Translations under genes and position numbers: made by a program | The notes under the pieces: generated by a model | Told to the model about the DNA's origin: nothing | The model's database searches: none | What the model saw: the letters and a program-made list of their open reading frames with translations, nothing else | In this document: positions 7,562 to 54,119 of the stretch, piece after piece | How positions within the stretch are numbered: position 1 is the first letter of the stretch | Layout of the letters: every line of letters starts with the position of its first letter | Assembly (NCBI GenBank): GCA_963710605.1 | Contig: CAVQBA010000004.1 | Coordinates: 1,216,001-1,280,000, forward strand | Origin: an uncultured cyanobacterium | GTDB taxonomy: Bacteria; Cyanobacteriota; Cyanobacteriia; Cyanobacteriales; Cyanobacteriaceae | Direction: 5' to 3' | DNA: 64,000 nt

Positions 7562-7881
7562 TTTTATCACTCCTCAATAAGGTCTAGTTATTTGTTTGTT
7601 TATAACATATGGATATTAAAGCGTACATTTTGTCAACATTTCTGTTGAATTTGTTACATTTATTTAATATTTACTTTATGTTTCCTAAATACATTGATTG
7701 TAAAAACTAATCCATTCTGTTTATATAACTTAATATAACAAAATAAGATCAACAATCTGGGTATCCCAAAGGTAGAGATAATAATTGAGATGAATCCCTG
7801 CTTCGCACGTCTTCGGTGAGAATTGAGAATCAGGAATTGAGAATTAAGAATTAAACTAGCTGTTCACTGTTCACTATTTTT

Positions 7882-12617: not shown

Positions 12618-12727
12618 ATATAGCATTTCCCAGATTTATGAGGTACAGTTCATATTTGTAAGTCCCCCTTTACAAGGGGGATTTAGGGGGATCGCTCTGT
12701 ACTTTATAATACTAATAATTGCTATAT
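12618..12727. repeat. MITE-like element with a CCCCCTT...AAGGGGG hairpin core
   Basis: Terminal IR ATATAGCA/TGCTATAT, inner IR TATGAGGTACAG/CTGTACTTTATA (10/12), GC-rich core CCCCCTTTACAAGGGGGATTTAGGGGGA. Confidence 0.65.
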
Positions 12728-13181
12728 TTTTAATCAGTATATTATAAGTTTATCAAAGTTCAAGTCCAGTAATACGAATCTTTTAACAGCCTATATCACA
12801 AAAAGAGTTTATCTTGTTTTGATTAAGTTAACCGTAAATAATTATTATTAATATCCCAATTAAATTTGAACTCTATTTTTGTCAGATAATTGAATTAATA
12901 ATTTTAAACTGATGTCATATAGAAAGAAGATAATGATTAATTAAAGCATTCTATCTCTTTTAAGAAAATAAAATATATCTATATTTTTCCTCAAGCTAAC
13001 TACTCAGTTCTATATAGAAACGTAAATTATAGACTAATGAATGATGATAGTATTAATTTAGAAATATTTCTTAATTAAAGAAAAATCAAATTGAGGAAAC
13101 AGAAGTTAAAACACTAATTAGAGTCGCTAAATATGCTAAAATAATTGCTTGTGAATCTTCATTTTCTTTTGACCCAAATTT

Positions 13182-15518: not shown

Positions 15519-15571
15519 CTATGAGTAATTAATACTATTTACTCAAAACACACCTTACTTTTTGCTTAGTA

Positions 15572-16036
15572 TTATTCATCGATATAGAAACGATAGAAGA
15601 AATAATCATCTCTAAAATCATGCTCATCAGCGACATGATGAATAATTTTTAAATCGATTAATTCTTGTCCTAATCTAAGGGCTTCAGGTTTAGATAAACT
15701 ATATTTAGCTTCTATCCATTTTACAACCTCGTTTCCTACAAAACACTGAGGATACGATGTGAGTCTGTATCTTCTGTCTTTGATTTCTATACCACCATCA
15801 CTACGCAAATCATTAACTAAAGTCATAATACGTTCATCGTATAAATCGATTAGTTGATTATTTTCTATTCTAACGAGGCTATTTTTCAAATATCCTTCTA
15901 ATTTATCATAACTACTTCCAGAATGTTCACTTAACCAATTTTGAGTTATTTTTAATGATTCTGTGGGTGAGACTTTGAATCTCATCAATAACAGTGCGAG
16001 TATTTTTTCTTGTGTTTTCTTGTTTTCAACCATCAT
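15572..16036 (-). CDS. DEP-domain-containing protein
   Basis: 'IKDRRYRLTSYPQCFVGNEVVKW...EALRLGQEL...IIHHV.DEHDF.D..FFYRF'. Confidence 0.75.
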   Translation of the reverse strand: MMVENKKTQEKILALLLMRFKVSPTESLKITQNWLSEHSGSSYDKLEGYLKNSLVRIENNQLIDLYDERIMTLVNDLRSDGGIEIKDRRYRLTSYPQCFVGNEVVKWIEAKYSLSKPEALRLGQELIDLKIIHHVADEHDFRDDYFFYRFYIDE

Positions 16037-16328
16037 GACGCTGATTTATTGAGTTTTTATTTATCAGTAATAGCCAAAAAAAACTTAGATTATCAGTTCA
16101 AATCATTTAAGGTAGATAAATTAGTTTAACGATTAATAATGTTCAAACTATAATTAAATTTACTATTTTTTAAATGAAAATGACAGTATAATCTTCAAAA
16201 ACTTGACTAATGTTTTTACGAACTATAAATATAATATAATATCGAATAATGAAAATTTTCTGAAAAAAATCTGAAAACCCTATCATAAATACACGATCGA
16301 GAATTGATGATTATTAAATATCGATTAG

Positions 16329-16745
16329 TTATTGGTCGATCGCTTTAGTGTAAAATTGTCGAATAGTTTGAATCATTTGTTCAATTACAGACTTACCACC
16401 TTGAGATTCAGGATCAAAATCTTGTAAACGACTAAGTAGCTTAGCTTCTTGGATATCAATATCACCATCACTATAAACTAAAGCACTAATCGATTCTAAT
16501 AATTCTTGATAATCTTCAAGAGTAGGATTTTTACCCAGATAATCTTCTAACCATTCATAACATTGGTTAGAAGTAACGGGTTTTATTCCTGAAAATAAAG
16601 ACTTAATATCAGGATCATCTTGTAGATTATATTCACTAACTTTAGTTGTTAAATATTCTCTTTCTTCTGATTGGATAATACCATCAATCCATGCTGTACC
16701 AATTAAGATTTTGATTAATTGTTTTGTTTTTTCTTTGTTCGACAT
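16329..16745 (-). CDS. TerB-like (tellurite resistance fold) protein
   Basis: 'ILIGTAWIDGIIQSEEREYL', 'LVYSDGDIDIQEAKLL'. Confidence 0.7.
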   Translation of the reverse strand: MSNKEKTKQLIKILIGTAWIDGIIQSEEREYLTTKVSEYNLQDDPDIKSLFSGIKPVTSNQCYEWLEDYLGKNPTLEDYQELLESISALVYSDGDIDIQEAKLLSRLQDFDPESQGGKSVIEQMIQTIRQFYTKAIDQ

Positions 16746-16747
16746 AA

Positions 16748-18088
16748 TTAATTTCCTTTGACTAATTTGACCATAAAAAATCCATCCATATTATCTGTAG
16801 GTGGAAAAATTTTTACTATTCCTTTTGATATTATCGAAAAATCCTCTTCTCGTTCATTACTTTTTATATCTAACTGCCATTGAGGATGGTTTTTTAAAAA
16901 TTGTTCCACGATATCCTCATTTTCAGCTTGATTTAATGTACAAGTAGAATACACCAAAACACCACCGGGGCGTACCCATCCAGACGCATTTTCTAAAATC
17001 TGCATTTGTAATTTGGTTAGATTATCTATTTGTGTTGGTTTTTTTTGCCAACGAATATCAGGATTTTTGTGTAGTGTCCCCAAACCAGAACATGGTACAT
17101 CAACTAAAACTCGATCGGCAAAACCTTTACCTAAGTCTAAACTGGTACTATCACCTTCGTGTATTTTAATCGAACTTAACTTTAATCGATCGTAATTTTG
17201 TTTTATTTTTTCTAACCGTTTCGGGTAACAATCAACAGCAATGATATTACCCTTATCACTCATTAATTCAGCTAGATGAGTTGTTTTACTTCCGGGGGCG
17301 GCACAGGCATCGACAATAGTTTCACCTGATTGTGGATTAAGTATCAAGCTTGTAAGTTGAGCACTAGCAGATTGAATACTAAATAAACCCTGTTCAAATT
17401 CAGGTAAATTCGTTATGTTTCCTCGTGATTGTGTCATCCTTAATAGTTGAGGAAAATTAGTAACTGTACTAGTGGTAATACCTTTATCTAATAATTGAGA
17501 TTGTAATTCCTCGGTAGTTATTTTAAGGGTATTAACTCTTAAATCTAAATGAGGAGATTGGTTAAACCACTGCAATAATTTTTCAGTTTCCTCACGAGAA
17601 AATTGCTCAGCGAACAAAGTAACTATCCAATCAGGAAAACTATATTTAACTCCTAATTGAGGTATATAAGTATTCGGTAAAACCAAACAATCATGATTAT
17701 CTGCCGATTTACGTAAATACGATCGTAAAATACCATTAACTACCCCCGCAATTTTAGTCATCCCGTTTTGTTTAGCCAAATCAACACTAGTGTTAACCGC
17801 CGCTGAAACAGGAATTTTATCAAGATAACGTAGTTGATATAAACCTAGCTGAAGAATAATCCTTAACTTTAAAGGTTGTGCTGAGGCTTTTTTAGTTGCT
17901 AACTGATTAATTAAGCTATCAAGAGTGCGTTTTCTCCTAACTACACCATAAACTAATTCTGAAACTAAATTACGCTCAACAGCACTAATAGAAGTTTGAG
18001 TTAGGTGCTTTTGTAAAGCAATATCTGTATAAGCTTTTTTTTGATATATATCTTGTAAGATTAAATACGCTAACTGACGAGAAGCCAT
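16748..18088 (-). CDS. rsmB: 16S rRNA m5C967 methyltransferase RsmB/Sun
   Basis: NusB-like N-domain, 'DACAAPGSKT', 'DVPCSGLG', 'YSTCT'. Real start is MASRQLA at 18088; the longer ORF is read through heptamer repeats. Confidence 0.9.
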   Translation of the reverse strand: MASRQLAYLILQDIYQKKAYTDIALQKHLTQTSISAVERNLVSELVYGVVRRKRTLDSLINQLATKKASAQPLKLRIILQLGLYQLRYLDKIPVSAAVNTSVDLAKQNGMTKIAGVVNGILRSYLRKSADNHDCLVLPNTYIPQLGVKYSFPDWIVTLFAEQFSREETEKLLQWFNQSPHLDLRVNTLKITTEELQSQLLDKGITTSTVTNFPQLLRMTQSRGNITNLPEFEQGLFSIQSASAQLTSLILNPQSGETIVDACAAPGSKTTHLAELMSDKGNIIAVDCYPKRLEKIKQNYDRLKLSSIKIHEGDSTSLDLGKGFADRVLVDVPCSGLGTLHKNPDIRWQKKPTQIDNLTKLQMQILENASGWVRPGGVLVYSTCTLNQAENEDIVEQFLKNHPQWQLDIKSNEREEDFSIISKGIVKIFPPTDNMDGFFMVKLVKGN

Positions 18089-18094
18089 GGATAA

Positions 18095-18169
18095 TAAGTA
18101 ATGAGTAAGAAGTAATAAGTAAGAAGTAACAAGTAAGAAGTAACAAGTAAGAAGTAACAAGTAAGAAGT
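18095..18169. repeat. Heptamer short tandem repeats (AGTAAGA/AGTAACA)
   Basis: About 10 imperfect 7-nt units. Similar heptamer tracts occur near 54-87, 4760-4785, 7200-7262, 19500-19550, 35220-35248, 38760-38840 and 49118-49158. Confidence 0.85.
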
Positions 18170-18185
18170 GTTAATTGCTAATTTC

Positions 18186-19490
18186 CTAACAATCGAGGGT
18201 ATTTTCTAATTCCCAATTGGTAATATAGTTACTATATTGATCCCATTGTTGATACTTCAATTTAAGATAAGAATTGACAAAAGATTCCCCAAACATTTTG
18301 TTGAAGACAGAACTTTTTTCTAAACAACGTAAAGCATCTAATAAATTAGCAGGAAGACTATCGGCTTTTGGCAAATCATCAGTTTGAGTATAACTATTAT
18401 AATCCGATCGTTCACCCGGATCAGTTTGATTTATAATACCATCTAAACCAGCGGCAATAATTGAAGCAGGAAGTAAATAAGGATTAGCCGCCCCATCAGC
18501 CAAACGAAATTCAAATCGACCTAAATCAGGAATACGAATCATATGGGTACGATTGTTACCAGCATAACTAATTGTATTCGGAGACCATGTAGCACCAGAT
18601 ACTGTCACAGGTGCATTAATCCTTTTATAAGAATTAATCGTCGGGTTAGTAAAAGCACAGATTGCCTTCGCCGATTCTAAGACACCACCAATGAAATGAT
18701 AACCTAAGCTTGAAAGTTCTGTTTCTCCCGTCATATCTTCAAATAAATTAGTTTTACCTGTGCTATCCCAGACAGAAACATGAGTATGACAACCGTTACC
18801 CGTCAGATTAGCAAACGGTTTGGGCATAAAACTGGCTCTAAAACCATGTTTACTAGCGATCGATTTCACCATATACTTAAAAAAAGCATGACGATCAGCA
18901 GTAACTAAAGCTAGGTCATACGTCCAATTCATCTCAAACTGTCCATTAGCATCTTCATGATCATTTTGATACGGTTTCCAACCAAAAGATAACATCGCAT
19001 CACAAATCTCACTGATAACGTCATAACGACGCATCAAAGCTTGCTGATCATAACAGGGTTTACTACTACGATCACGTGAATCAGAAACTTCATGCTCATC
19101 ACCAGACAGTAAAAAATATTCGCATTCTACCCCTGTTTTGATGGTATAGCCCATCTCTTGGGCTTGCTTGAGTATTTTTTTGAGTAATAGTCGTGGAGTC
19201 TGCATTACAGGCTCTCCATCCATACCATACAAATCCGCTGGCATCCAAGCTACATCAGGTTGCCAAGGTAATTGAAACAGACTATTTCGATCGGGTATAG
19301 CTAATACATCAGCATCCGCCGGAGTTAAATCTAACCATGCCGCAAAACCAGCAAAACCTGCCCCTTCATCCGCCATTTCATCGATACTTCGGGCTGGAAC
19401 TAATTTTGCTCTTTGCACACCAAACAAATCGGTAAAAGAAATTAAAAAGTAACGAATTCCACGATCTCTTGCAATATCAGATAAAAGCAT
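18186..19490 (-). CDS. glnT: GlnT/GmaS-like glutamate--amine ligase (TIGR03105 type)
   Basis: 'YFLISFTDLFGVQRAKLVP', 'GAGFAGFA', 'YQNDHEDANGQFEMN', 'FMPKPF', 'GNNRTHMIR'. Confidence 0.8.
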   Translation of the reverse strand: MLLSDIARDRGIRYFLISFTDLFGVQRAKLVPARSIDEMADEGAGFAGFAAWLDLTPADADVLAIPDRNSLFQLPWQPDVAWMPADLYGMDGEPVMQTPRLLLKKILKQAQEMGYTIKTGVECEYFLLSGDEHEVSDSRDRSSKPCYDQQALMRRYDVISEICDAMLSFGWKPYQNDHEDANGQFEMNWTYDLALVTADRHAFFKYMVKSIASKHGFRASFMPKPFANLTGNGCHTHVSVWDSTGKTNLFEDMTGETELSSLGYHFIGGVLESAKAICAFTNPTINSYKRINAPVTVSGATWSPNTISYAGNNRTHMIRIPDLGRFEFRLADGAANPYLLPASIIAAGLDGIINQTDPGERSDYNSYTQTDDLPKADSLPANLLDALRCLEKSSVFNKMFGESFVNSYLKLKYQQWDQYSNYITNWELENTLDC

Positions 19491-19738
19491 TTTATTTTTA
19501 GGTGTTAAGTGTTAAATGTTAGGTGTTAGATGTTAGGTGTTAGGTGTCAGGTTTTAGCTTACCAAAATCCTACGTCGGATATGAGCAAAACATACACTCT
19601 ATTAAATGATTCAATTATTGAATACGAGTAACTCATGACTTATTACTCACTATACTTTGAGAACTTATCTATACTAGAAGACAAGTTTAATCCCAATTTG
19701 TCATTACAATTACTTTTAAGTTGAAGATTGATTAAGTT

Positions 19739-22069
19739 ATGGAAAAATTAGCACCGACAAATAACTTTAAAAGTTTGCTAGCGAAAATCAAAGCCTTACC
19801 GCAACCTAAAACCGAAGAATCGATTCTCTTAAGAATTCTTGTCCAATTAATGGTTATTGTCGCTATCGTAGCTACAGATGTAGCGGCTCTGAACATTTTC
19901 TGGATGAGTACTTGGGCAATACCTTTAAGTATCGTTGGTGCGGTAGTGAGTTGGCGTAGAAGAAAGCAAAAAAATATTGGCATAAAATTTATGTTAGCGA
20001 TCGCTATGGTTGCTACATTAGTCATTTTCTTTGGTAATCTGCTTAGTAATATCAACGATACCCGACTTGTTTTAGCTGAATTTTTAATCCAATTACAAGT
20101 TTTGCATAGCTTTGATTTACCCAGACGTAAGGATTTAGGTTATTCAATGGTTATTGCTTTAATCTTGATTGGTGTATCGGCTACTTTATCGCAAACCCTC
20201 GCTTTTGCCCCTTGGCTATTACTGCTACTAGTTTTAGCTATTCCTACCTTAATTTTAGATTATCGATTGCAAATGGGCTTGACTAGTTGGGAAAAACAAT
20301 GGTCAAAAAAATCATCTATTTCTCAATCAACCTCAACAAAAACTAGCTCATTATCTCTTAAAAAAGTCGGTTTTTATATTGCTATCATTATTACCCTAGG
20401 TTTAGCTATCTTTGCGATTATGCCTCGTTATCCAGGGTATCAAATTCAAAGTTTCCCTGTTAGTGCGCCCGATGGCTTTGAAAATCGTGATTTTACCGGG
20501 GCTGATAGAAGTGTTGTTAATCCGGGTTATAACCCTGATGGTACGCCTAATGGCGATTTGATTGGTGAAGGAGAAAATGGTGCAGGGCAACAAGACGACA
20601 CTTCTTATTATGGTTTTAATACTAAAATCAATCAAAACTTTAGTAATACAATTGGAACTAAAGAATTACTGTTTAGAATTCGATCGCAATATCCGGGTTA
20701 CTGGCGAGTTTTAGGATTTGATCATTATACAGGACAAGGATGGGAAATTCTTAGAGAAGAACAAACGGCTGAGATTAAAAGAAATCCTTGGAATTATCAG
20801 TTTCGTCTAAATGTACCTCCAATTAAGGGAGAAACTAAAAAGGTAATTCAAACTTATACGACAGTTGTTAATTTACCAAATATTATACCTAGTCTGCGTT
20901 ATGCTCAAACTATCTATTTTCCTGCTACTGAAATTGCCGTAGATTCTGAAGGCAGTTTACGCTCTCCTTCGGGTTTAATTGATGGTTTGACTTATACCAC
21001 TATTTCTCGTGTACCTTATCGTAATCAGACTCAATTACAACAAGCAGGAGATAATTATCCTGATTTAATTGAAAAATATTATTTAAGTTTGCCCCCAGAG
21101 GTTAAAGTCAGAGTAAAAGTAAAAGCAGAAGAATTATTAGCACTTGCCGATCGTGAATTAACCTCTAATTATGATAGAGCTTTGTATTTAGCTCAAGCAA
21201 TTAAACAAAATTATAGTTTACAAACCGATATTCCTCGTTTAGCTGAAGGGGAAGATTTAGCCGAGGCTTTTTTAGAGCAAAACCAAGGTGGTTATCCTGA
21301 TCATTTTGCGACGGTTTATACTTTGATGTTACGATCGTTAGATATTCCTAGTCGTTTAGTCGTCGGTTTTGCACCCGGAAGATTTAACCCTTTTACTGGT
21401 TATTATTTGGTACATAACACCGATGCTTATGCTATGACTGAGGTTTATTTTCCTGATTATGGTTGGTTTTATTTCGATCCTTTACCCGGACATGATATTA
21501 TCCCTGTATCGTTTCAAGATGATAATCTTTTTGGTGTTTTAGGGTTGTTATGGAAATGGGTTGCTAGTTGGTTGCCTTCACCGATTACTGCTTTTATTAC
21601 GGCTGTTTTCAGTCGAATATCTCAAGCAATTTTAAGTATATTTCAAGCACCTTGGTTAGCTAAATTATGGCAATTTATAACTGGTAGTTTTATTGGTGTT
21701 TTATTAGGTTTTTTGGGTTTAATTATTCTTAGTTTTATCGCTTGGTTACTTTTTAAATATTTCCAGAAAGTCTGGGAAACACGTCGTTTAAATAAACTTC
21801 ATCCGATGGCTAAAATATATCAACAAATGCTAAATCTACTACAAGAAAAAGGTCATCTTAAAAATAAAGCTCAAACTCCTTATCAATATAGTCATAGTTT
21901 AAGTAATGTAGTCGAAAGCGAACAGTTAGAAATTATCAATTTGATTACTGACAATTATGTCCAATGGCGTTATGGTAAACTAACTCCGAATACAGAGCGT
22001 TTACGATCGCAATTTGCTTTATTACAAAAAAGTTTTGATCGCAATCGCCAGTTGACTATTAGTAATTAG
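19739..22069 (+). CDS. TgpA-like membrane transglutaminase-domain protein (DUF3488/DUF4129)
   Basis: N-terminal TM bundle, 'DHYTGQGW', 'IPSRLVVGF', 'EVYFPDYGW..FDP'. The usual G-x-C triad Cys and the HAW His appear replaced (GGYPDHF, YAMTE). Confidence 0.8.
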   Translation: MEKLAPTNNFKSLLAKIKALPQPKTEESILLRILVQLMVIVAIVATDVAALNIFWMSTWAIPLSIVGAVVSWRRRKQKNIGIKFMLAIAMVATLVIFFGNLLSNINDTRLVLAEFLIQLQVLHSFDLPRRKDLGYSMVIALILIGVSATLSQTLAFAPWLLLLLVLAIPTLILDYRLQMGLTSWEKQWSKKSSISQSTSTKTSSLSLKKVGFYIAIIITLGLAIFAIMPRYPGYQIQSFPVSAPDGFENRDFTGADRSVVNPGYNPDGTPNGDLIGEGENGAGQQDDTSYYGFNTKINQNFSNTIGTKELLFRIRSQYPGYWRVLGFDHYTGQGWEILREEQTAEIKRNPWNYQFRLNVPPIKGETKKVIQTYTTVVNLPNIIPSLRYAQTIYFPATEIAVDSEGSLRSPSGLIDGLTYTTISRVPYRNQTQLQQAGDNYPDLIEKYYLSLPPEVKVRVKVKAEELLALADRELTSNYDRALYLAQAIKQNYSLQTDIPRLAEGEDLAEAFLEQNQGGYPDHFATVYTLMLRSLDIPSRLVVGFAPGRFNPFTGYYLVHNTDAYAMTEVYFPDYGWFYFDPLPGHDIIPVSFQDDNLFGVLGLLWKWVASWLPSPITAFITAVFSRISQAILSIFQAPWLAKLWQFITGSFIGVLLGFLGLIILSFIAWLLFKYFQKVWETRRLNKLHPMAKIYQQMLNLLQEKGHLKNKAQTPYQYSHSLSNVVESEQLEIINLITDNYVQWRYGKLTPNTERLRSQFALLQKSFDRNRQLTISN

Positions 22070-22670
22070 TTTTATCGATCGTTTATCTGATTGAATTAAG
22101 AAAAATTATTAACAATAAATTATTTATTAATTATTATTAAAATTTAATCTTCACCGATAAACTAAGTTATAATTGATACTACTAAAAATTTATTTTCTTA
22201 AAGTAAAAATTATAGATAGAATCAGAACAAAAAAAAGAAAAGATTCAGTAGAAAGTGAATTAATACGGTCTTTTGTCGAAAACGACGATCGTTTTAACGA
22301 AACACATAAGATAAATAAATCAAACTGAAATTGGCAAAAATAAACCTTGGTTACAATTTGATTTAATAATCTATTATCTATTATTAATTGTTATTCATTC
22401 TTGATAATTTATCGAAAAATCACCTTTGCCTTTTGCACGAGTGCACGAGTGCCCTTTTGACGCTCAGTATAAACACTTAAAGTAATCAAGGAAAAGCTCT
22501 TATAATTAAAAGATTAGACAAAAAATCAGTAATTAAGCTGATCTAAAAAACCATATTTTCCAGTAAAATCATATTATCCGACAAAAAATAACCACTGAGG
22601 TTGTCCAAATAACTTTATGTATTTATTTGCGAAAATTTAAATTATCGTTTGTACACTATTGTAGATAGCC

Positions 22671-23996
22671 GTGAATATAATTAATCTGCCCAACCATCAT
22701 CAATATCATATTACTGTCGGAGAGCAGGATATATACGATCATTTGTTGGATTGTGTGCAAACACAACATCCTCAACAAGTACTGGGAAGATTTCATCGTC
22801 TGTTTATCGAAACTAAAAGTTATGACAATCAAGAAGTACTAAATATACTCGCCACAATTATTAGTAGCCCTCTGGCAGAGCAAACTTTTTCATCTATTTT
22901 GAATCGTTGTTGTCATATTTTAATTAATCCTTGGCAGTTACAAGTTAATACCCAAAATTATATTACCAAGTTAGTAGATTTATTTGAGTCTATACCTGAG
23001 ATAGTCAATACACGTAAAAGTAAAACTTATTCAGGTAGAATGATTCAGTTAGTCAGAAAATTTTTGGAAACTGATTATTATGTACAATTAAAACGTTTAT
23101 CCACTATTGTCGTTCAAAATCAAGAGCGGAAAATTAATGTCGGTAAAAAACAAGAAACTTTAGGTAATTTAATTATCCGTTATCCTTATTTATATGACCA
23201 TTGCCTCTTAACTCATGATAGTGGTAATGAGCAAAAACAAACTGTTTATGAGGTTAAAAATAAGATTGAGCGTAAATTTGAGTCTCAATTATCAAAGTTT
23301 GTCACTTATCAAATCAGAGTAGCACAAGTAGGAAAAGAAAAGATTATTATACCTACCACTGATTATAGAGAATCAAAAATTATCCAACCTGTGAAAAATC
23401 CTACCTTATTAAGCGATCGAGATTTAGGTAAAACTTTAAAGCATTTTGTCGGACCAATAAAAAACGGTAATTCTTATCAAGACTTATCCCGTAGTTTTGT
23501 TCATCATAGCAACGATATTCGCAATTATCAATTATTTAAAGATGATTTGTATGAATATGTCATGCAATCGATCGATGGAAAATATGCAAACAATACATTT
23601 AATAAGCGTTTATATCAAAAAATGCAACAAATGTATCCAGGGCGTAACAATAGTAAACCAGATGAGTTTTTAAGAATGCGTACTTATAGTCAATTATTTA
23701 ATTATTTGATTGTAGATAGCCATAGTAATCCTAATCATTTAGTTTTCATGGATATGATTAGTAATATGGGTACAACGAAAACGATCGGTGTAATGCTTAA
23801 ATTAGCCTTACTTTGTGGTAAAGCTAAACCGTATATTGAGAAAAAGTTTTCAATTCTTTTTAATCATTATGAATCTTTTAACAAAGATGGTGCAGGCTGG
23901 CTAGTTAGAAGTTTAGAAAAACTCAATGTTGCTTTTAGTTCTAATTTTGGTAAATTAGATACGTCTTATTTAAGAAGAATTTATCGTCAAAGTTAA
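22671..23996 (+). CDS. Hypothetical soluble protein (441 aa)
   Basis: Long ORF with host-like codon usage; no motif I can assign. Confidence 0.7.
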   Translation: MNIINLPNHHQYHITVGEQDIYDHLLDCVQTQHPQQVLGRFHRLFIETKSYDNQEVLNILATIISSPLAEQTFSSILNRCCHILINPWQLQVNTQNYITKLVDLFESIPEIVNTRKSKTYSGRMIQLVRKFLETDYYVQLKRLSTIVVQNQERKINVGKKQETLGNLIIRYPYLYDHCLLTHDSGNEQKQTVYEVKNKIERKFESQLSKFVTYQIRVAQVGKEKIIIPTTDYRESKIIQPVKNPTLLSDRDLGKTLKHFVGPIKNGNSYQDLSRSFVHHSNDIRNYQLFKDDLYEYVMQSIDGKYANNTFNKRLYQKMQQMYPGRNNSKPDEFLRMRTYSQLFNYLIVDSHSNPNHLVFMDMISNMGTTKTIGVMLKLALLCGKAKPYIEKKFSILFNHYESFNKDGAGWLVRSLEKLNVAFSSNFGKLDTSYLRRIYRQS

Positions 23997-24105
23997 AAAA
24001 AAAATCGACAACTATAGTTATTTTAACTCCGACTGAGACAGCCAAAATCAACAATAAAAAAAATGAGTTGTTTAACCACCACTTTAATTTAAACTCTTGA
24101 ATCTA

Positions 24106-26160
24106 TTAACTAACTTTAAAGGTTTCCACAGAAGACTGTAATTGACGTGCTTTATCAACAGTATCAATTAGAGAGTTAGCCACCTCAGTTGAAGAATTAG
24201 AACTAATTTGAGCAATTTGAGCAATTTCTTTCATCAAATTAGCTACCTCAGTTGAAGTTTTCGTTTGAGAAACAGTAGCCCCACTAATCGATTTTAATAA
24301 CTGATTTATTTCCCCCGAAACTAAAGTAATTTCACCAAAACCTTTTTTCGCTTCTTCTACTAGTTTTGTACTTTTAACGACTTGTGTTGTACCATCTTCC
24401 ATTGCTTGTACGACACTACTGGTTTCTTTTTGAATTGCTTCAACAATTTGTTCAATTTCTTTAGTTGCTACCGCCGATTGTGCCGCTAATTGCCCGACTT
24501 CTTCAGCTACTACAGCAAATCCTCTACCTTCTTCTCCTGCCCGTGCGGCTTCAATTGAAGCATTAATTGCTAATAGGTTGGTTTGTAAAGCAATTTGATT
24601 GATTAAAGAAATAACCTTAGAAATCTGTTGAGAAGACTCTCCTAAACGTTTAACTTTTTTCGCTGTTTCCCCTACTGTTTCTCTTAATTCGACAATACTT
24701 TGTACTGTTTTATCGATCGTTACTTCCCCGGTTTTAGCTGTATTTGAAGCTAATTGAGCAACCTTAGCCGCCGATTGAGTATTTTGAGCAACTTGGCGAA
24801 TTGAGCGAGTCATTGTTTCCACAGATTCAAGCATTTGCTGAATTTTTTGGGATTGATTAATTGACTCTCTAGCTAATTGAGCAATTTCTTCTTCATCATT
24901 AATCAATGATTTATTTACCTTAATTGTTGTCTGTTTTACTTGGGTTACTAACTCTCGTAAACTTTCGACAATCGAATTAAAAAAGTCGGCAACAATCCCA
25001 ATTTCTCCATCACTAATTTTAGCCCTAACTGTCAAATCTCCACCAGAGACACCTTCAACATCACTAAGTAAAGAAAGTAAATCATTTTGAATCACTTCTC
25101 TTTGTTTTGTTTGCTCAGTTGCTAAGTTTTCTGCCTCTTGTTTAGCTATTTCTACTTGTTGTAAGGTACTTTTTTGCTCTTCTAACAACAACCTTACTTG
25201 ACTAACTAGATTATTAAAATTGTTATTTAAAGTAACTGCTTCTAAATTTCCTCCTACCTCAGATACCTTATCTAAATTACCTGCTGAAACTTCTCGGGCA
25301 TTATTTGCTAATTGAGTAAACGGTTTTGATAATTGATTAGAAAGATAAAAAATAGTAGTTGTAATTAGTAATGCCAAAATAGTCGTAATAACTAAAAGAA
25401 TACTTATTAATTCACCACCTTGTGTTTGTAGTTGTGCTTCATCAATCGATGAAATCGAAACAAAAGGTGTATTAGGATTAGTGGCGATATAATAACGCTT
25501 ATCTAAATAAGCAAATTCGGCGATTAAACCATTATCATTTTGATTAGCTTGATTAGCTGAGGAATTAATAGATGATAAATCTAATTCATTTATGCCATCA
25601 TATTTTTCGGCTATTATTTGGGCATCAACTGCATTGTTTTCATCTGAAGTATTATTTAATCTATTTTGTTGAGATGTAACTAAATCTCGAGCTAGATTCA
25701 AAACTGTTTCGCCACCAACAATCGTTTGATTAGTCGTATTATCATCTTTAGTAATATTTCGAGTAACAGTACCGTTTTCAAGATTGACAATTTGAATAGT
25801 TTGTGTATCAGTAATACCGCTTTGTTGCAAATAATTTATTACAGATTCATTATCATTATTACGGGCTAAAACAGCTTGATTTTCTATTTTGTCTTCTAAC
25901 TCATGCTCTAACTCTTCATGCACTATCCAATAACTAATACCACTAATAATAACTAAAGGCGTTAATACAGTTGGTAAAACCGTCATTAATAGTTGAGTGC
26001 GGATTTTTCGATCGGCTTGAAAAGGACTTATTTTTTGCCAAAAATTTCTTTTTTGAGGAGGAATAGCTTGATTTGGCTGATTGTCATCCAGATTATTTTC
26101 AACTAAAAAGCCAGTTTCTGAAGATTGATTGTTAGTAGATTCGGAGTTAGTACTTAACAT
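24106..26160 (-). CDS. Methyl-accepting chemotaxis protein (PilJ-like)
   Basis: Two TM, HAMP, MA domain '[33 protein letters not shown]'. Confidence 0.92.
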
Positions 26161-26504
26161 TAATTACTATGGATAAAATTTGATGTAAACGGGTTTTCCA
26201 ATTAATATAATTGATTACAAATACATGACAAATAGCTGAAACAATTGTTTGCTTTATCTATTCATAATTTATTAACTATTATAAATTTCAGGAATAATTT
26301 GAGCCAACAATTAACAATTATACAATTAATTCTTCATTATAATAAATAATACGATAAACAAATATTTAATTTAAATAAAAACAATTACTGATAGCTTAAA
26401 TATTAATTTTTTTATAAATCTTAATTAATATTATATTTATATCATAAGAAAGAAGAAACTAATAATTTTAAGACTAAAACAAATATTAATAATTACTAGT
26501 TTCA

Positions 26505-26981
26505 TTAATATACCGATTGATATTCGGTAATAGCAATAGCGTCCAAGATATAAATTAGTTTACCCTCATCTACAACCCAACCATTCAGATAGGGAATAAT
26601 AGATTCAGAAATATCATCCCACGAAGATTGTATTTGATTAGACGTAATACGAGTTACACCCTTTATCTGTTTTACTACCAAACCAACAAAAATATTATTT
26701 ATCTCCATAAAAGCAATGTTATATTCTCTCGCACCTTTGCAATTAAAATCTAAACTTAACAATAAAGGTAAATCAATCAACCAATAAATACCATTACGCT
26801 GATTAATAAGCCCCATAACACATGGGGGCATATTGGGAATACGGCTTACTTGTTCACTATTAATAACTAAAACTTCTTGAGCATATTTCATCGGCAACAA
26901 ACCTTGAGTCTGATTATCTAGTTGTAGCCTTAGATAAGACTCTCCTAAATTTTGAGGTGTTTGAGTTGAGGAGAAAGTCAT
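26505..26981 (-). CDS. cheW: CheW-like coupling protein
   Basis: 'IPNMPPCVMGLINQRNGIYWLIDL', 'GLVV.QIKGV'. Confidence 0.85.
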   Translation of the reverse strand: MTFSSTQTPQNLGESYLRLQLDNQTQGLLPMKYAQEVLVINSEQVSRIPNMPPCVMGLINQRNGIYWLIDLPLLLSLDFNCKGAREYNIAFMEINNIFVGLVVKQIKGVTRITSNQIQSSWDDISESIIPYLNGWVVDEGKLIYILDAIAITEYQSVY

Positions 26982-27011
26982 AGTAAATAGCTTTAGTATT
27001 TGTGTTTTGAT

Positions 27012-27371
27012 TTAGATGACTGATTTAACAGCAGTAAGAATTTCGTCTTGAGTATAAGGTTTTGTAATATATATATCAACTCCTTGTCTCATTGCCCACA
27101 TTTTATCAATGTCTAAACTTTTAGATGAGCAAGCGATGATGGGTAAATTTTTGGTATTCGGATTTTTTTTCAAACTACGGCATAATTCTAAACCGCTCAT
27201 TTCTTCCATTACTAAGTCGGTAATTAATAAATTAGGTTTTTGTGCCAAAACTTTTCTTAAACCTTCTTTTCCTGTGTTAGCTGTAATTACTTTATAACCT
27301 CCTTCGGTTAAATAATTTTTCATTAATTCCATTTGTGATACCGTATCTTCTACAACCAAAATAGTAATCAT
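27012..27371 (-). CDS. CheY/PilH-like single-domain response regulator
   Basis: 'ILVVED', 'TDLVM..MSGLELCR', 'WAMRQG', 'KPY'. Confidence 0.85.
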   Translation of the reverse strand: MITILVVEDTVSQMELMKNYLTEGGYKVITANTGKEGLRKVLAQKPNLLITDLVMEEMSGLELCRSLKKNPNTKNLPIIACSSKSLDIDKMWAMRQGVDIYITKPYTQDEILTAVKSVI

Positions 27372-28069
27372 AATATTTTTTGGTGATTAATTGTTATTGA
27401 GTAATTTATTGAAGAATATTAAAGACTTTAATTTTCTATTTTTTCTTATTTAGACAAAATATTAGATAGTTTTTCCAGTTTAAGAATAAAAGCGAAAAAT
27501 TATTTTTGTTCGACATAAAAACGTTGTTTACATTTAATTACCACTTAAATATCGAAAAGCAATTTCTAATAAATCGTCTTGAGTAAAAGGTTTATTCATA
27601 TAATCTGTCGCACCAGACATTTTTGCCTTCGCTCGGTTAATAATACCAGTGTTACTAGTAAGCATGATTATCGGTATATTTTTAAAAATTGCATTTTTTC
27701 TTAGTAAAGAGCAAAGCTGATAACCATCAATTAATGGCATACTTATATCCATAAAAATCAAATCAGGCTTGATTCGATTCATTAACATCATCGCTTTAGG
27801 GGCATTATTAATCGGATAGACAAAAATATTATCTTGATTTAAAAATTCTTTAATCGAATCAAGTACCGTTGGGCTATCATCAATACAAGCGATTTTATAT
27901 GTTTTTAAAGTTTGTTCTATTTTACTCACGGGTAAAATACTTTCAGGTATTTTTTCTTCTTGTTTTTTCGGCAGGGCGATCGCTTTTTTGGCACTATTTT
28001 CGGTTAGTTTTATTAATTTTTCTAACGGGCTTTTCGGTTCTCTTAAAATGATCAGTTTTTTCTGGATTA

Positions 28070-39743: not shown

Positions 39744-39956
39744 GATCGACTCTTAAGATTGATATTTCTTTTGTTTAGATAACTTTTTATCATGATGTCG
39801 GCAGAATACCCTTATGTCCTTGACTTAGGGATGAATGCCGACAAATCAATTGAGGGCGATTAGCCCATCCCCTCATTAAAAAAAATAAGTGAGAAAATTC
39901 AATTTTGTCACTTATAATTAAAATGATTAAAAAATACTGAATAATCAGTAATTCTC

Positions 39957-42900
39957 ATGATATTAGCTTTTTGCTACAAATTAAAACCTAGTTTGTCCCA
40001 ACAAAGGACGATCGCTCATTGGATGGCAATGTTGAGGTCGCACTACAACTATTGCCTAGCCGATCGAATTGGTAGTTATGAAGAAGTTCGATCGCCTAAA
40101 CTAGGAGAATATTGCGACTTGCGAACTAAGGCAGTTTGTTCTCCCTTAAGCTGTGCCATCTCTAAAAATTCTAATATGGGCGAACCATTTAAAGGTAATG
40201 GTAAAAGACGTAATGCCTATGAAATGCAATCTTCAGAACTACCTATTCTTAAAAAGTCTCGCCCGTGGTATGCCACCATTAGCTCAACTGTCCTTCAACA
40301 AAATCTTCGACGATTGAATGATGCCTTTGAGGGGTTTTTCAATGGTAAAGGCTATCCTGCTTTTAAAAGGCGTAATAAGTTTAAAAGTTTTTCCTATGCC
40401 CCAAACCAAGTTCAGTTTAATCCGCAAAAAGTCTATTTGCCCAAAATAGGATGGATGCGGTTTTTCAAGTCTAGGGCTTTTCCTAATGGGTTCACTCCCA
40501 AGACTGTTACCGTTAGGCAAAAAGCCGACGGGTACTATATATCTGTACGCTTGGAAGACAAAACTGTCCCTGACTTTGAACCAATGGAAATCGATCGAGT
40601 AAAATCGATTGTCGGAATTGACTTAGGAGCAAGACCTCATAAGTTATGTTGTTTGTCCACAGGAGAAAATATCCCTAATCCCATGTTTGCCAAACAATCT
40701 AGTAAACGTCGAACATTACTACACCGTAGGGCTAGTCGTAAAGTGAAAGGCTCAAAAAATCAAAAAAAAGCCTACCAAAAATTAAGCAAATTTGAACTTG
40801 GAGTTATAAATCAAAGAAATGATTACCAGTGGAAAGTGGGACACCAGCTAGTACGCAAGTTTGATGCGATCGTCATGGAAGCCTTGCAAATTCAAAATAT
40901 GACTCGTCGATGCAAACCAAAACTAGATGAGCAAGGGAAATACCTTAAAAATGGACAATCGGCTAAACGGGCATTAAGCCGCTTAATCCAAGATTGTAGT
41001 TGGGAAAAACTAAAGGGCAAAATACGTCAAGTCGCTGAAAAGTGTGGGCGTATTTTTCTAGAAGTAGAACCTAAATTTTCCTCTCAAACCTGTTCGTCTT
41101 GTGGGTTCAAAAGTAAAGAAAACAGAAAGAAAGAATCATTTTTGTGCCTAAACTGTGGAATGTCTCATGATGCGGATACCAATGCGTCGCTCGTATTAGC
41201 AACTCGTGGAATTGAAAAACTTGGTATTAGTGAAAATACCCTATGGGGGGTCACCCCAAAAGTTACGGCTACCTCTGAAACCTCAGAGGTGACTAGAAAT
41301 AGTCAGGAGATCAAATCAGTGGCGTTGGCGACTGAGCCTAGCAACCCTCTACAACGTGCGATTCGTTCTTACGAAACCTTTATCTAAAGGTGGATGTGAG
41401 GCTTTCAGTTAAGTAACTCCCCCTGAGTTGTGCTCGCACTTTAATCCTTAACTGAATTAATAACTTGTAATTCATGGAGGTGAATCAGTATCCTAGAACA
41501 TAAGTCCTCCCGACCTTGTGCGGGTTGAAAAGCATACAGCGTCCCCACTCGTGAGGGTGGTGAGAAGTTTCCCCAATTTCTGAGGTGACAACTCAGAGGT
41601 TGAAGCGGGAGTAAAAGCGGATAGTAGCGATAATTGCTGAAAACGCCTCACCGCAAGCAAGTGTTTTATAAGCGACCCAGGACTGAGATAATCTCAGGGA
41701 AATGGACATCGTGGGGTAGATAATCAAAGTATCTATTGAAGCGTCTCAAAGGGTTAGCAAGGGATATAAGCTAGTGGATAATGCCACACCTTGCATTCCG
41801 AAATAACGGAAGAATAATAATATGTGGTTCTGTTGTAAAGTCACATCGCACAATTAATTCAAATAGGCGTAAAGGTACACCCTAAAGAACACAAATCAAC
41901 TGGTTGCACCGTCGCAACCAGCAATGGAATACAGGAACGAAGTAAACCAATATAAGCCCCAGAATAACTGGTAGGTCGTCAAACCGTATGCTTAAGTTGG
42001 GAAAGGATGGGTCAAGAAGCTAATGCCTAGCTCGAAAACACGAGCATTGCTGGAAAAGAGAAGGGGTAACGCCCAGGATACGCAGACGTGACTCGCAATA
42101 TATCAAATGCTAAAGGTGTCAGTAGTAGTAAATATGTCTAATACAGAATCGAATCAGAATACTGTGGAATGGGAAAATATCGATTGGCGTAAAGTCGAAA
42201 GATATGTCTTTAAGCTACAAAAACGCATTTACGCTGCTTCACGTCGTGGTGAAGTTAAGAAAGTACGCAAACTCCAAAGAACCCTTATGAGGTCTTGGTC
42301 TAATAAGGTACTTTCGGTCAGAAAGGTAACACAGGATAACAGAGGTAAGAAGACGGCAGGAGTGGATGGAGCAAAAGCACTTTCCCCAGAAGAACGTATG
42401 AACCTCGTAGGTCAACTAAAAATCACAGGAAAAAGTAAACCAACTCGGAGAGTATGGATACCGAAACAAAATAGTGGTGAAAGAAGACCATTGGGAATAC
42501 CAACTATATATGACCGAGCCTTACAAAACACTGTTAAATCAGCGATTGAGCCAGAATGGGAAGCTCGTTTTGAGTCAAACAGCTATGGTTTTAGACCAGG
42601 ACGGTCAGTCCACGATGCTATCAAGCAAATTAAAAATGCAATTCAAAAGAAACCAAAATACGTTTTGGATGCCGATATTGCAAAATGTTTTGATAAAATC
42701 AACCACTTATCCTTACTTAAGAAGCTCGGATACACGGGTAAAATCAGGCAACAAATTAAAGCCTGGTTAAAATCTGGGGTCATTGACCAAAAGGTTTTTA
42801 CTACTACGTCTGAGGGTACACCGCAAGGTGGGGTTATTAGCCCTTTACTCGCTAATATTGCCCTCCACGGGATAGAAATTATGTTAAAGGAGTTTGTCAA

Positions 42901-44130
42901 AACATTAGACTTGCGAAGAAAAGACTATCCAAGCAGTCAAATAAGTTGGCAGAAGAAAGTTCGTTCGCTGTCTTTTATAAGATACGCAGATGACTTTTTA
43001 CTAATACATGAGGACTTAAAAGTGGTCCACAGATGCAAAGAATTAATCTCTGAATGGTTATATGACATTGGACTAGAACTAAAACCATCAAAAACCAGAA
43101 TCACTCATATACTCAAACCAGAATTGAGCGAGGATAGAAAAGCTGGGTTTGATTTCCTCGGACATCATATACAGCAATATCCAATAAGTAAGTACCAAAG
43201 TGCGAAGCTAAATGGAAAACCACTAGGCTTTAGGACTCTCATAACACCAAGTAAGGAAGCACGTTTAAAGCATCAGAAAGATATGAGGGACATTGTGAGA
43301 AAACATAAAAACTCTCACCAAGCAAAATTAATCAAGAAGTTAAATGAGTGTATAAGAGGTTGGTGTAATTACTATGTCAACTCAGACGCTCAAACTGTTG
43401 GTGAATTTTCCAGACAAGACCACCTTGTATATCAAAAACTTAGAACTTGGGGCAAACGGAGGTGTAAAGGAAGCCTCAATAAAGCACATAAGAAATACTG
43501 GTGCAAAGTAGGTAATAATAACTGGGTATTTGCAGTCAATCAAGAGACGAAGAATCCCTTGAGGTTACTAACACATAGTGAATATAAATGTAGTAGTACA
43601 AACTATGTGAAAGTTAAAGATGACGTAAGCCCCTTCAACGGTGACTTGGTTTACTGGAGTACACGGATGGGCAAAAGCCCAGAGATGCCAAATCGAAAAG
43701 CGAAATTGCTTAAGATTCAAAAAGGGGTCTGCCCTTGGTGTCAACTTAGATTTCGTGAAGAAGATGTATTAGAAGTTGACCACATTCAAGCTCGTGCCTT
43801 GGGAGGAAAGGACACATACAAAAATCTTCAACTACTTCACGGTCATTGCCACGATGAAAAAACTGCCTTGGATATGAAGGAAATTTGGAAGCACAAGACT
43901 CTCAGTGATTTTTTAAAATCTAATAATATATTGGAAAATTACAATTGGTACTGGGATGAAAACGATATTCTAATAACCTTCAAGAAAATAAAGTGAAGTT
44001 CAATAACAAGATAGATATGTTGAGTAGCCGTGTGAAGCGAAAGTTTCACGCACGGTTTCGGAGGAGAGGAGTAGAGTGGAAACACTCACTTCGACTCTAA
44101 CTATCGTTGTTTGAGTGGATGGACGGCTGA
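39957..44130 (+). CDS. tnpB: RNA-guided endonuclease TnpB, join(39957..41355,44102..44130), 475 aa after splicing
   Basis: HTH N-terminus, RuvC D (GIDLG), E (VMEAL), D (DADTNAS), Zn finger CSSC/CLNC; spliced C-terminus EPSNPLQLSLFEWMDG*. Confidence 0.88.
41356..44101 (+). mobile_element. Group IIB self-splicing intron (2746 nt)
   Basis: 5' GTGCG; DV AGCCGTGTGAAGCGAAAGTTTCACGCACGGTT (44026-44057); DVI with bulged A at -8 and 3' AAC; EBS1 GTTGTA (41832-37) pairs IBS1 TACAAC; EBS2 AGGGTT (41750-55) pairs IBS2 AACCCT. Confidence 0.92.
42107..43996 (+). CDS. ltrA: Group II intron-encoded reverse transcriptase/maturase with HNH endonuclease
   Basis: RT N-domain 'WRKVERYVFKLQKRIY', 'RPLGIPT', 'GTPQGGVISPLLANIAL', YADD, X domain 'RGWCNYY', HNH 'CPWC...EVDHI...NLQLLHGHCH'. 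Confidence 0.93.
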   Translation: MLKVSVVVNMSNTESNQNTVEWENIDWRKVERYVFKLQKRIYAASRRGEVKKVRKLQRTLMRSWSNKVLSVRKVTQDNRGKKTAGVDGAKALSPEERMNLVGQLKITGKSKPTRRVWIPKQNSGERRPLGIPTIYDRALQNTVKSAIEPEWEARFESNSYGFRPGRSVHDAIKQIKNAIQKKPKYVLDADIAKCFDKINHLSLLKKLGYTGKIRQQIKAWLKSGVIDQKVFTTTSEGTPQGGVISPLLANIALHGIEIMLKEFVKTLDLRRKDYPSSQISWQKKVRSLSFIRYADDFLLIHEDLKVVHRCKELISEWLYDIGLELKPSKTRITHILKPELSEDRKAGFDFLGHHIQQYPISKYQSAKLNGKPLGFRTLITPSKEARLKHQKDMRDIVRKHKNSHQAKLIKKLNECIRGWCNYYVNSDAQTVGEFSRQDHLVYQKLRTWGKRRCKGSLNKAHKKYWCKVGNNNWVFAVNQETKNPLRLLTHSEYKCSSTNYVKVKDDVSPFNGDLVYWSTRMGKSPEMPNRKAKLLKIQKGVCPWCQLRFREEDVLEVDHIQARALGGKDTYKNLQLLHGHCHDEKTALDMKEIWKHKTLSDFLKSNNILENYNWYWDENDILITFKKIK

Positions 44131-44349
44131 GGTAATTGGCTGTCAGAATTCCCATTGTCTAAGGCGATAGCCGTACGGTGGGGTTCTTCAACTAATCATA
44201 ATATTTACAAGACACGATCGATTTAATAATTGTTCCGAAAGCTTAATTAATTCTCTTTTTCTCATCGTATTACTTTTATTGATTACATTAAATTGTTCTG
44301 TAATCTTTCTTTAAGAGATGGTAGTATTTTTAGAATATCGATCGTTTTA

Positions 44350-52928: not shown

Positions 52929-54119
52929 CTAATCCCGAATCTGTACAGGCATAATCAAGTAAGTCATTTGTAAACCACTTAGGGGAGTGATAATAACGGG
53001 TTGAGTTGGATTATTAAAATTAAATTTAATCTCATTAGCCGATATTGCTTTCAAGCCATCCATCAAATAGCGAATATTAAAACCAATCTCAAAATCATCA
53101 CCAATAATTTCTGCTTCAATTGATTCGGTTGCATTACCTAATTCTTTGGCTTCTACAGAAACAACCACTTGTTTATCTTCGGTATTTAAGTTAAATTTAA
53201 CTAAGTTATTTTTTTGATCAGTTAAAACCGAAACTCTCTCTAAACTATCAATTAAAGTTCTACGCTCTATAACCATCGATCGTTCAAACTCTTGAGGAAT
53301 TAATTGATTATAATTAGGATAAGCACCATCTAACTTACGACTAGTCAAATGCTGAGTGCCTAACTCAAAAACAACTTGCCCTTCATCTACATATAAAGCA
53401 ATCTCATTTTCTTCCTTACTCATTGTCATCATTTTTTCTAATTCCCTCAAAGCACGTGCGGGAATCGTGATGGTAAAATTTTGCTCGGTAGTAGCAGTTG
53501 GTTTCTGGTTTTGCTCATCATCATCACCATCACCATCATCCTCATTTTGCTCACTAGTTTTTACCACCGCTAAACGATGCCCGTCGGTGGCGGCAAATTC
53601 CAAATCATCCATATCACGGGTTAGGTGTATTCCTGTTAATATTTGCTTCGTCTCATCACTACTTGCAGCAAATAAAGAACTTTTTAAACCTTCAGATAAA
53701 GCAGGGATACTTAATAATAATGCTTCATCTTTTTCGACGATAGGTAACTCGGGATATTCATCAGCAATTACTCCTCTTAACTGAAATTTGCCTGATAATG
53801 AATTTAAAGTTACGATCGGGTTATCTGCTAATTTTTCTTCATCATAATCTAAAGCGACTTGCCCTTCAGGTAAACGAGTGACAATATCATTAAAAAGTTT
53901 GGCAGGTAAAGTTATCACTCCTCCTTCTTCAACCTCAGCACTGAAAGTTGTCCGCATACCCAAACTTAAATCGAATCCGGTAAGGGTAACTAAGTTTTTG
54001 TCTTCGTCGGCTATCAATAATACGTTGGCTAAAATTGGATGTGTAGGGCGAGAAGGTACAGCACGAATTATTAATGATAAGTTATTGTTAAGATCTATTT
54101 GCGAACAAACTATTTTCAC
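52929..54119 (-). CDS. dnaN: DNA polymerase III beta sliding clamp
   Basis: 'PSRPTHPILANVL', 'ATDGHRL', 'YPNY..LIP', 'YLIMPVQIR'. Confidence 0.95.
   Translation of the reverse strand: MKIVCSQIDLNNNLSLIIRAVPSRPTHPILANVLLIADEDKNLVTLTGFDLSLGMRTTFSAEVEEGGVITLPAKLFNDIVTRLPEGQVALDYDEEKLADNPIVTLNSLSGKFQLRGVIADEYPELPIVEKDEALLLSIPALSEGLKSSLFAASSDETKQILTGIHLTRDMDDLEFAATDGHRLAVVKTSEQNEDDGDGDDDEQNQKPTATTEQNFTITIPARALRELEKMMTMSKEENEIALYVDEGQVVFELGTQHLTSRKLDGAYPNYNQLIPQEFERSMVIERRTLIDSLERVSVLTDQKNNLVKFNLNTEDKQVVVSVEAKELGNATESIEAEIIGDDFEIGFNIRYLMDGLKAISANEIKFNFNNPTQPVIITPLSGLQMTYLIMPVQIRD

Follow-up and report, generated by a model that had tools for sequence, protein, structure and literature searches.

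Here we describe a group II intron inserted in the tnpB gene of an IS200/IS605-family transposon from an uncultured cyanobacterium, found in a stretch of 64,000 nucleotides (nt) of contig CAVQBA010000004.1 (the window, whose numbering is used throughout). The transposon carries tnpB without tnpA, and the intron lies where the last codons of the gene spell QLSLF, a peptide of the type that binds the beta sliding clamp DnaN, and where the sense-strand RNA is predicted to fold into a hairpin. According to the reading that we prefer, and to which we assign a probability of about 0.6, a tnpB-only element was invaded once by the intron, QLSLF is a clamp-binding peptide, the structured RNA is an omegaRNA guide, and splicing restores both. 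The new aspect, as far as the sequences reveal it, is that the codons of a clamp-type motif double as a covarying, guide-RNA-like hairpin, and that the intron disrupts the two together.

The first tnpB exon occupies positions 39957-41355 on the plus strand (466 codons and the first base of the next, ending in ...EPSNPLQ plus C), and the second exon lies on the same strand at 44102-44130 (TA, followed by the codons for SLFEWMDG and TGA). The unspliced open reading frame (ORF), 39957-41387, matches the Pfam families HTH_OrfB_IS605 (PF12323), OrfB_IS605 (PF01385), and Cas12f1-like_TNB (PF07282), and scores 213 bits against the NCBIfam model guided_TnpB (NF040570; cutoff 100). Of 1403 proteins found by a homology search at E<=0.001, the best 120, with 50-64% identity to the query, were used in the comparisons below. 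When aligned with 42 of these 120 homologs, the TnpB of the window keeps every invariant column, namely D222, E308, C379, C382, C397, C400, D405, and D407; the four cysteines constitute the zinc finger, and we take D222, E308, and D405/D407 to be the catalytic triad.

Computational joining of 41355 to 44102 yields an ORF of 475 amino acids (aa) that ends in ...EPSNPLQLSLFEWMDG with the stop codon at 44128-44130; its tail, ...NPLQLSLFEWMDG, contains the consensus QLSLF 5 residues before the C-terminus. The unspliced ORF of 476 aa ends in ...EPSNPLQRAIRSYETFI (PLQ-RAIRSYETFI), where the final 10 residues are intron-encoded and the motif is absent. The exons meet inside the second motif codon, one base into it (CAA C/TA TCG TTG TTT), which places the QLSLF codons at 41352-41354, at 41355 plus 44102-44103, and at 44104-44112. 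Both tails, PLQ-RAIRSYETFI before and QLSLF-EWMDG after joining, and the interruption of the second motif codon had been described in the original prediction, and they were reproduced when recomputed from the ORF and the join.

The group II intron extends over 2746 nt on the plus strand, in sense orientation with tnpB (41356-44101). Its 5' boundary, GTGCG at 41356-41360, fits the GUGYG rule, and its 3' boundary, ...CTAAC ending at 44101, fits the 3' AY rule. The last 13 bases of exon 1, AACCCT-C-TACAAC, contain two intron-binding sequences (IBS), each with a perfect 6-nt partner among the exon-binding sequences (EBS) of the intron, both on the plus strand: EBS2 (AGGGTT, 41750-41755) complements IBS2 (AACCCT, 41343-41348), and EBS1 (GTTGTA, 41832-41837) complements IBS1 (TACAAC, 41350-41355). 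Each EBS is unique within the first 800 nt of the intron, and EBS2 precedes EBS1 by 82 nt, in the expected order. At the other end, domains V-VI (44023-44101, plus strand) match the Rfam family Intron_gpII (RF00029) with 53 bits against a gathering score of 40, covering model positions 1-77 of 77 and ending exactly at 44101. In the fold of domain VI, the GA at 44093-44094 is bulged (fold z-score -4.5; none of 200 shuffles folds equally well), which places the branch A at 44094, 7 nt before the final intron base at 44101; the branch-point A of group II introns usually lies 7-8 nt from the 3' splice site. Between these regions, in domain IV, the intron encodes an intact protein of 629 aa, counted from its first ATG (42107-43996, plus strand), with the Pfam domains RVT_N, RVT_1, GIIM, and HNH of a reverse transcriptase (RT)/maturase/HNH endonuclease and a score of 317.8 bits against TIGR04416 (cutoff 300).

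Comparison with intron-free DNA leads to the same boundaries. The homologous locus L040 reads AACCCTCTACAAC-TT-TCGTTGTTTGAGTGG and the joined window AACCCTCTACAAC/TA-TCGTTGTTTGAGTGG, with no insertion or deletion. Thus, five lines of evidence agree that the predicted splice boundaries, 41355/44102, are correct, and those of the original prediction are upheld by the EBS/IBS pairings, the domain VI fold, the end of the Rfam match, and the gap-free alignment with homolog DNA. A 3' splice site at 44104, the competitor named in that prediction, was examined and rejected: the resulting join of 44104/44105 (...NPLQPLFEWMDG) is one codon short of all intron-free homologs, the branch A would lie 10 nt from it, and the site lies past the end of the Rfam model. 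Within 44125-44135, the TGA of exon 2 stands in place of a CGA or CAA in the closest homologs, and TnpB therefore ends 5 residues past the motif (EWMDG), versus 10 (EWMNGRAIGC) in the nearest homologs; downstream of this TGA the nucleotide sequence remains conserved at the RNA level. Apart from its unusual place, the intron is an ordinary mobile group II element.

The tail that follows the zinc finger could be located by the pattern of that finger in 116 of the 119 non-self homologs. At the same position as in the spliced window protein, QLx[LI]F was found in 89 of these 116 tails and in none of the 116 protein bodies, the expectation from shuffled tails being 0.195 per 116. The third, variable residue is S in 45 of the 89 tails, N in 14, and T in 9, and this preference for Ser agrees with the published consensus. 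DNA from other genomes tells the same: among 108 loci (29 from a genome search and 79 from a contig search), 72 TnpB tails were found, 67 of them complete, and 47 of the 67 carry the motif. Because intron-free homologs already have the motif, splicing would restore it, and the original claim that splicing creates it needs correction; the comparison of homolog C-termini suggested along with that claim thus located the motif as predicted and corrected its history. The intron interrupted a pre-existing QLSLF, to judge from this distribution.

The motif also occurs in several other settings. A TnpB paralog in the same genome but outside the window (L006, contig C4, match 1129623-1130627), 34% identical and with an intact open frame of about 405 codons, ends in ...TTQQYTQLSLF directly before its own right-end hairpin and GTCAA. 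A clade of TnpB proteins 44-50% identical to the query has two QLxLF motifs about 35-55 residues apart, PKQL(T/S)LFQTP ... FQLSLFNQEN (loci L061, L062, L064, L113, L115, L117, L118, L120, L121, L125, L127, L130, and L131). Elsewhere GC-rich palindromes, each a C-run, a loop, and a G-run, replace the QLSLF codons exactly between AACCC and GAGTGG (L109:2563-2640, L097:1585-1665, L140, and L158; proteins P0027, P0047, P0055, P0070, P0086, and P0091). Translation of these palindromes gives peptides resembling IPPAPLSKGGARGD, in frame in some cases (L109; P0027, P0047, P0055, and P0086), and the apical part of the corresponding RNA helix, helix 3 below, seems to tolerate or attract insertions.

Guide RNAs of TnpB overlap the 3' end of tnpB, and the same part of the window element shows a conserved RNA structure. 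Among 39 extracted 3' regions without the intron, 22 were aligned, selected for standard architecture, an undamaged motif region, and a right end present in full; the 17 dropped were L050, L052, L054, L055, L057, L058, L059, L097, L100, L109, L123, L128, L139, L140, L154, L158, and L159. The RNAalifold consensus of the 22 sequences has 32 pairs, 18 of them with compensatory changes. Paired cells amount to 97.7%, compared with 85.4 +/- 0.8% in 500 shuffles, none of which scored as high; the covariation score is 0.428 versus 0.187 in the shuffles, and sliding the 3' partners by 1-3 columns left at most 52.8% paired. The many G-U pairs suggest that the RNA is made from the sense strand. Helix 3 consists of CCCTC-N-ACAR and YTGT-TT-GAG-T-GG on either side of a 6-nt loop, and it is encoded by the codons for N-P-x-Q-L-x-L-F-E-W. 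Flank-anchored searching found 22 sites at this helix, three of which were spurious (L055, L141, and L147) and were set aside; in the remaining 19, position 3 of the Gln codon and position 1 of the second Leu codon form A-T in 13 cases and G-C in 6, with no mismatch. No variation is seen at the synonymous positions of GAGCCT and AACCCT across the 22 sequences.

The window intron sits in the apical loop of helix 3 (ACAAC/TATC GTTGT), and it consequently interrupts the RNA as well as the ORF. The 5' half of the omegaRNA-like element (41301-41355, plus strand) contains helix 2 and the 5' arms of helices 1 and 3 and overlaps the last exon 1 codons, while the 3' half (44102-44191, plus strand) comprises the 3' arm of helix 3, helix 4, the closing arm of helix 1, the right-end hairpin, and the TCAA end. 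A covariance model, R1, built from the 22 sequences matches the window twice, on either side of the intron: model positions 1-48 align to 41301-41350 with high posterior probability, and a second match at 44059-44191 (44.6 bits, E 6.8e-10) has high posterior probability over about 44108-44191, its intron-side portion being spurious. Rfam yielded no family at gathering score for the 3' RNA in 12 loci or in this region of the window, and at E<=1 in four loci only one unrelated weak match. The covarying 3' RNA is most likely the omegaRNA guide scaffold, judging by its overlap with the 3' end of tnpB.

The proposed partner is encoded in the same window: dnaN, the gene for a beta sliding clamp of 396 aa (TIGR00663, 360 bits; homologous to solved beta clamps with a best E of 4.5e-51), lies at 52929-54119, where the original prediction had put it, and is on the minus strand. 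Modeling of the complex, the check proposed there, used the window DnaN, with an alignment of 45 of the 120 listed clamps, and residues 434-478 (45 aa) of the TnpB homolog P0004, whose tail NPLQLSLFEWMNG shares 12 of 13 residues with the spliced tail of the window. The model placed the motif in a conserved cleft of DnaN with a median score of 0.68 against 0.00 for the best control, a result that applies to the P0004 tail and not to the window's own; of the solved complexes, 116 of 157 reach this mark, as do 2 of 215 mismatched pairs. Separate runs agree in at least 46% of contacts, with a predicted local distance difference test (pLDDT) score of 46-50 for the partner. The predicted contacts join tail residues 461-468 (N-P-x-Q-L-S-L-F), 470 (W470), and 475 to DnaN residues 178, 180-183, 388, and 390-395, among others, which we take to be the canonical hydrophobic cleft; T178, G180, H181, R182, M390, P391, and V392 are invariant in the 45 DnaN sequences. 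The motif of the spliced tail lies near the C-terminus and is conserved among homologs, and the low pLDDT (46-50) of the P0004 tail in the complex runs fits a flexible region, as befits a clamp-binding peptide. QLSLF is most likely a DnaN-binding peptide in a flexible tail.

A putative clamp motif on cyanobacterial TnpB has been published before. Gomez et al. (2014, Genome Biol Evol; PMC3971601) searched proteins of insertion sequences (IS) for motifs of the QLSLF type, using the clamp consensus Q-L-S-L-F/L after Dalrymple (2001) as cited there, and the accessible part of that paper assigns a putative beta-binding motif to the C-terminus of a cyanobacterial IS200/IS605 OrfB. Binding peptides there came from nine families (IS5a, IS30, IS66a, IS91, IS200, IS1380, ISL3, ISNCYa, and Tn7); the IS200/IS605 OrfB stands outside these nine and is termed only putative (PMC3971601). 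The spliced window TnpB has the same pentapeptide consensus in its C-terminal tail, and the accessible text of PMC3971601 makes no mention of tandem motifs, of overlap with an RNA hairpin, or of an intron. The statements in the original prediction that clamp motifs have been reported in IS-encoded proteins and that QL[S/D]LF is their consensus agree with this paper, and the QLSLF of the spliced tail matches the consensus as quoted in PMC3971601 and, as a QL[SD]LF-type sequence, in PMC6006769. The work of Gomez et al. precedes the recognition of OrfB/TnpB as an RNA-guided nuclease. In the literature that we found, no later study links TnpB to the sliding clamp, coupling of TnpB to host replication is unaddressed, and Lavatine (2016) deals with TnpA. 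A long QLxLF-bearing tail is not known from the characterized TnpBs.

Several points weigh against a clamp-binding role for the tail. The motif is missing from 27 of the 116 protein tails and from 20 of the 67 complete locus tails. The GC-rich palindromes retain the hairpin and lose the QLSLF peptide. Helix 3 covers the whole of NPxQLxLFEW, and constraint on the RNA alone could account for a large part of the peptide conservation in the focal clade. The favorable complex model was obtained with the tail of a homolog, and since solved clamp-peptide complexes exist, its success demonstrates likeness to them and may reflect memory. Finally, no clamp-binding experiment for any TnpB was found in the literature on TnpB and the sliding clamp.

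A rival reading is that the codons are conserved only as part of helix 3 and that the QLxLF peptide is a by-product of the RNA without any clamp-binding role, which we regard as unlikely. A dual reading of this stretch is possible because CAR, for Gln, and YTG, for Leu, are reverse complements, so that AACAR-N6-YTGTT spells QxxLF. The absence of mismatches at the 19 flank-anchored sites, the extent of helix 3 over the N-P-x-Q-L-x-L-F-E-W codons, the invariant synonymous positions in GAGCCT and AACCCT, and the palindromic inserts that keep the hairpin and drop the peptide are all as expected of a constraint on RNA, and in the two-motif clade a perfect 6-bp stem, AAACAA-N6-TTGTTT, encodes motif one of the pair, KQL(T/S)LF. 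Because the motif codons form the covarying hairpin, conservation of NPxQLxLFEW in the focal clade is not purely a matter of the protein, and the constraints on peptide and hairpin cannot be fully separated there. Synonymous variation in the five motif codons is likewise no clean protein-level evidence, being partly compensatory RNA pairing. The count of motif codons was conditioned on the expression QL.[LI]F; the flank-anchored sites provide the unbiased count.

What pairing leaves unexplained is the loop, where the second motif codon always specifies Leu and never Phe: its TTN codons end in a purine in 10 of 10 cases, and its CTN codons in T or C in 6 of 9, a pattern that is only suggestive because the sequences are related. 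Beyond the focal clade, the peptide recurs without conserved pairing, and it is on such lineages that we rely. The second motif of the two-motif clade, FQLSLFNQEN, lacks the stem of the first and uses CAG or CAA with CTA, so that pairing is not kept; the loci L060 and L066 share the peptide VAIQLSLFDLMG, with different codons at 4 of the 5 motif residues; homologs with about 30% identity to the query (L143, L149, L150, and L164) have GVQL[AS]LF at the extreme C-terminus, in the form GVQLALF in L143 and L164; and the paralog L006 likewise keeps the peptide. Retention of QLSLF by other TnpB lineages in unrelated flanks, including the very C-terminus, and without pairing argues for selection on the peptide, as do the third residue, Ser in 45 of 89 tails as in the published consensus, and the modeled placement of the motif in the conserved DnaN cleft. 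We keep to the reading in which clamp peptide and guide RNA share the site. Its extension to a large cyanobacterial TnpB clade, in which one 30-nt stretch would serve both as the apical stem-loop of the omegaRNA and as a DnaN-binding QLxLF tether, with both dependent on splicing in the window, is tentative and in our view somewhat doubtful.

The intron in tnpB is apparently a one-off insertion confined to this genome, as indicated by the searches made. No second copy of the window TnpB was found in its own genome, where the next best paralog is 36% identical, nor a second copy of the intron. In no case does one of the 67 complete homolog tails run on into an intron, and Rfam detected no group II intron in 12 homologous loci, the flanks scanned covering about 1.5 kb only. 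Related introns, 71-77% identical over the 5' 400 nt, occupy unrelated sites. Homing specific to tnpB was considered and rejected: none of seven related copies with a readable upstream flank follows an NPxQ exon. In these seven the match begins at the intron 5' end, the flank of L073 being 1 nt long; an eighth copy, L083, begins inside the intron and has no flank.

This distribution bears on the original proposal of a two-isoform system in which the spliced form only is tethered to the replication fork, that is, of splicing as an evolved switch. The two predicted tails do differ precisely at the motif, and both products may well exist, since bacterial group II splicing is generally incomplete. 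We nevertheless consider such a switch highly improbable. The arrangement is unique and without comparative support: it has no second copy in the genome, no counterpart among the 67 tails or the 12 loci with their flanks of about 1.5 kb, and no parallel among the seven related introns, while the EBS/IBS match is expected from any retrohoming or retrotransposition event and there is no sign that the interrupted state is selected for. A motif-less product of the unspliced transcript is best taken as a likely by-product of incomplete splicing after an accidental insertion. A decaying element, in which the intron no longer splices or the element is silent, so that tnpB is effectively truncated and the motif irrelevant here, would be compatible with the single copy in the genome, the early TGA of exon 2 (EWMDG versus EWMNGRAIGC), and the many frameshifted homologs (e.g., L045, L050, and L056). 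It appears improbable in view of the intact TnpB ORF with its homolog-invariant residues, the intron protein of 629 aa above the TIGR04416 cutoff, domains V-VI exceeding the Rfam gathering score with a canonical branch site, perfect EBS1/IBS1 and EBS2/IBS2 pairings, and the fit of both RNA halves to the covariance model.

Under the preferred reading of an element invaded once by an apparently intact intron, transcription from the tnpB promoter would give a pre-mRNA containing the intron. Splicing at 41355/44102 would then produce a full TnpB with a clamp-binding tail together with a continuous guide-RNA scaffold, and the unspliced transcript would give the motif-less TnpB of 476 aa with 10 intron-encoded terminal residues and a scaffold split by 2.7 kb. 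Speculatively, clamp binding may keep the RNA-guided nuclease on newly replicated DNA, whose sister copy could serve to repair the donor site once it is emptied.

Cas12 descends from TnpB, which is itself a compact nuclease for genome editing. A conserved and sometimes doubled clamp-binding tail would, if true, offer a testable link of the maintenance of RNA-guided transposons to the replisome, and a peptide motif lying over a covarying guide-RNA hairpin makes a clear example of dual coding. C-terminal conservation in TnpB should not be read as protein-level without a check of the RNA. The value of the window intron lies mainly in its being a natural interruption of both the hairpin and the motif.

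Known systems resemble the window in parts. In IStrons, group I introns are fused to IS605/IS607 elements with TnpB and omegaRNA, as described in the preprint by Zedaveinyte et al. (PMC10690162). Like these, the window would have a self-splicing intron and a TnpB guide-RNA region on one transcript, where splicing and guide production may be coupled or in conflict; in IStrons, however, the transposon itself is the group I intron, whereas the window has an independent group II retroelement, in single copy, within the overlap of tnpB and the presumed omegaRNA. The window intron has all sequence hallmarks of bacterial mobile group II introns with RT-maturase-HNH proteins and differs from them solely in its location, inside a mobile element and in an RNA hairpin loop that is also the peptide motif. 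With ISDra2-type TnpB/omegaRNA systems the window element shares the RuvC domain, the zinc finger, a structured RNA reaching over the ORF 3' end to the right end, and the TCAA finish; unlike them, the window element lacks tnpA and its RNA has no Rfam match.

The transposon as a whole extends over 39790-44191 on the plus strand, its left boundary being approximate, and is about 4.4 kb long with the intron and about 1.66 kb without it. A left-end block, ATGTCGGCAGAATACCC, starting at 39795, is common to seven homologous loci by sequence comparison. TTATC stands 5' of this block (ATGTCG..AGAA.ACC) in the window (39785-39811) and in L048, L049, L092, L093, L094, L099, and L108; the flanks beyond it are unrelated among these loci, and it is a candidate target sequence or one resembling a transposon-associated motif (TAM). 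The right end, ...GGGGTTCTTCAA, stops at 44191 with the conserved TCAA and is common to L039, L040, L049, and others, past which the flanks diverge; the intron insertion site is 90 nt from this end.

Some further observations concern the relatives of the intron and of the transposon. Other group II intron RT segments, 66-70% identical, cluster in the same genome on contigs C2 (about 4500-8600) and C5 (about 12500-27900), and the genome thus hosts a family of such introns. A further intron of this lineage, 71% identical to the window intron in its first 400 nt, is found on the minus strand of L075 (junction at locus position 1501). It follows closely on the zinc-finger region of another tnpB, within a sequence that resembles a right end, GGCTGTTGAGAATCCCCCG..., and is the second member of the lineage seen in the 3' region of a TnpB element. 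Many of the homologous elements, including L045, L050, and L056, are frameshifted remnants. In three more distant elements, tRNA genes are located on the opposite strand, no more than about 100-150 nt from the right end (L054:1303-1389, L055:3013-3097, and L059:3013-3099).

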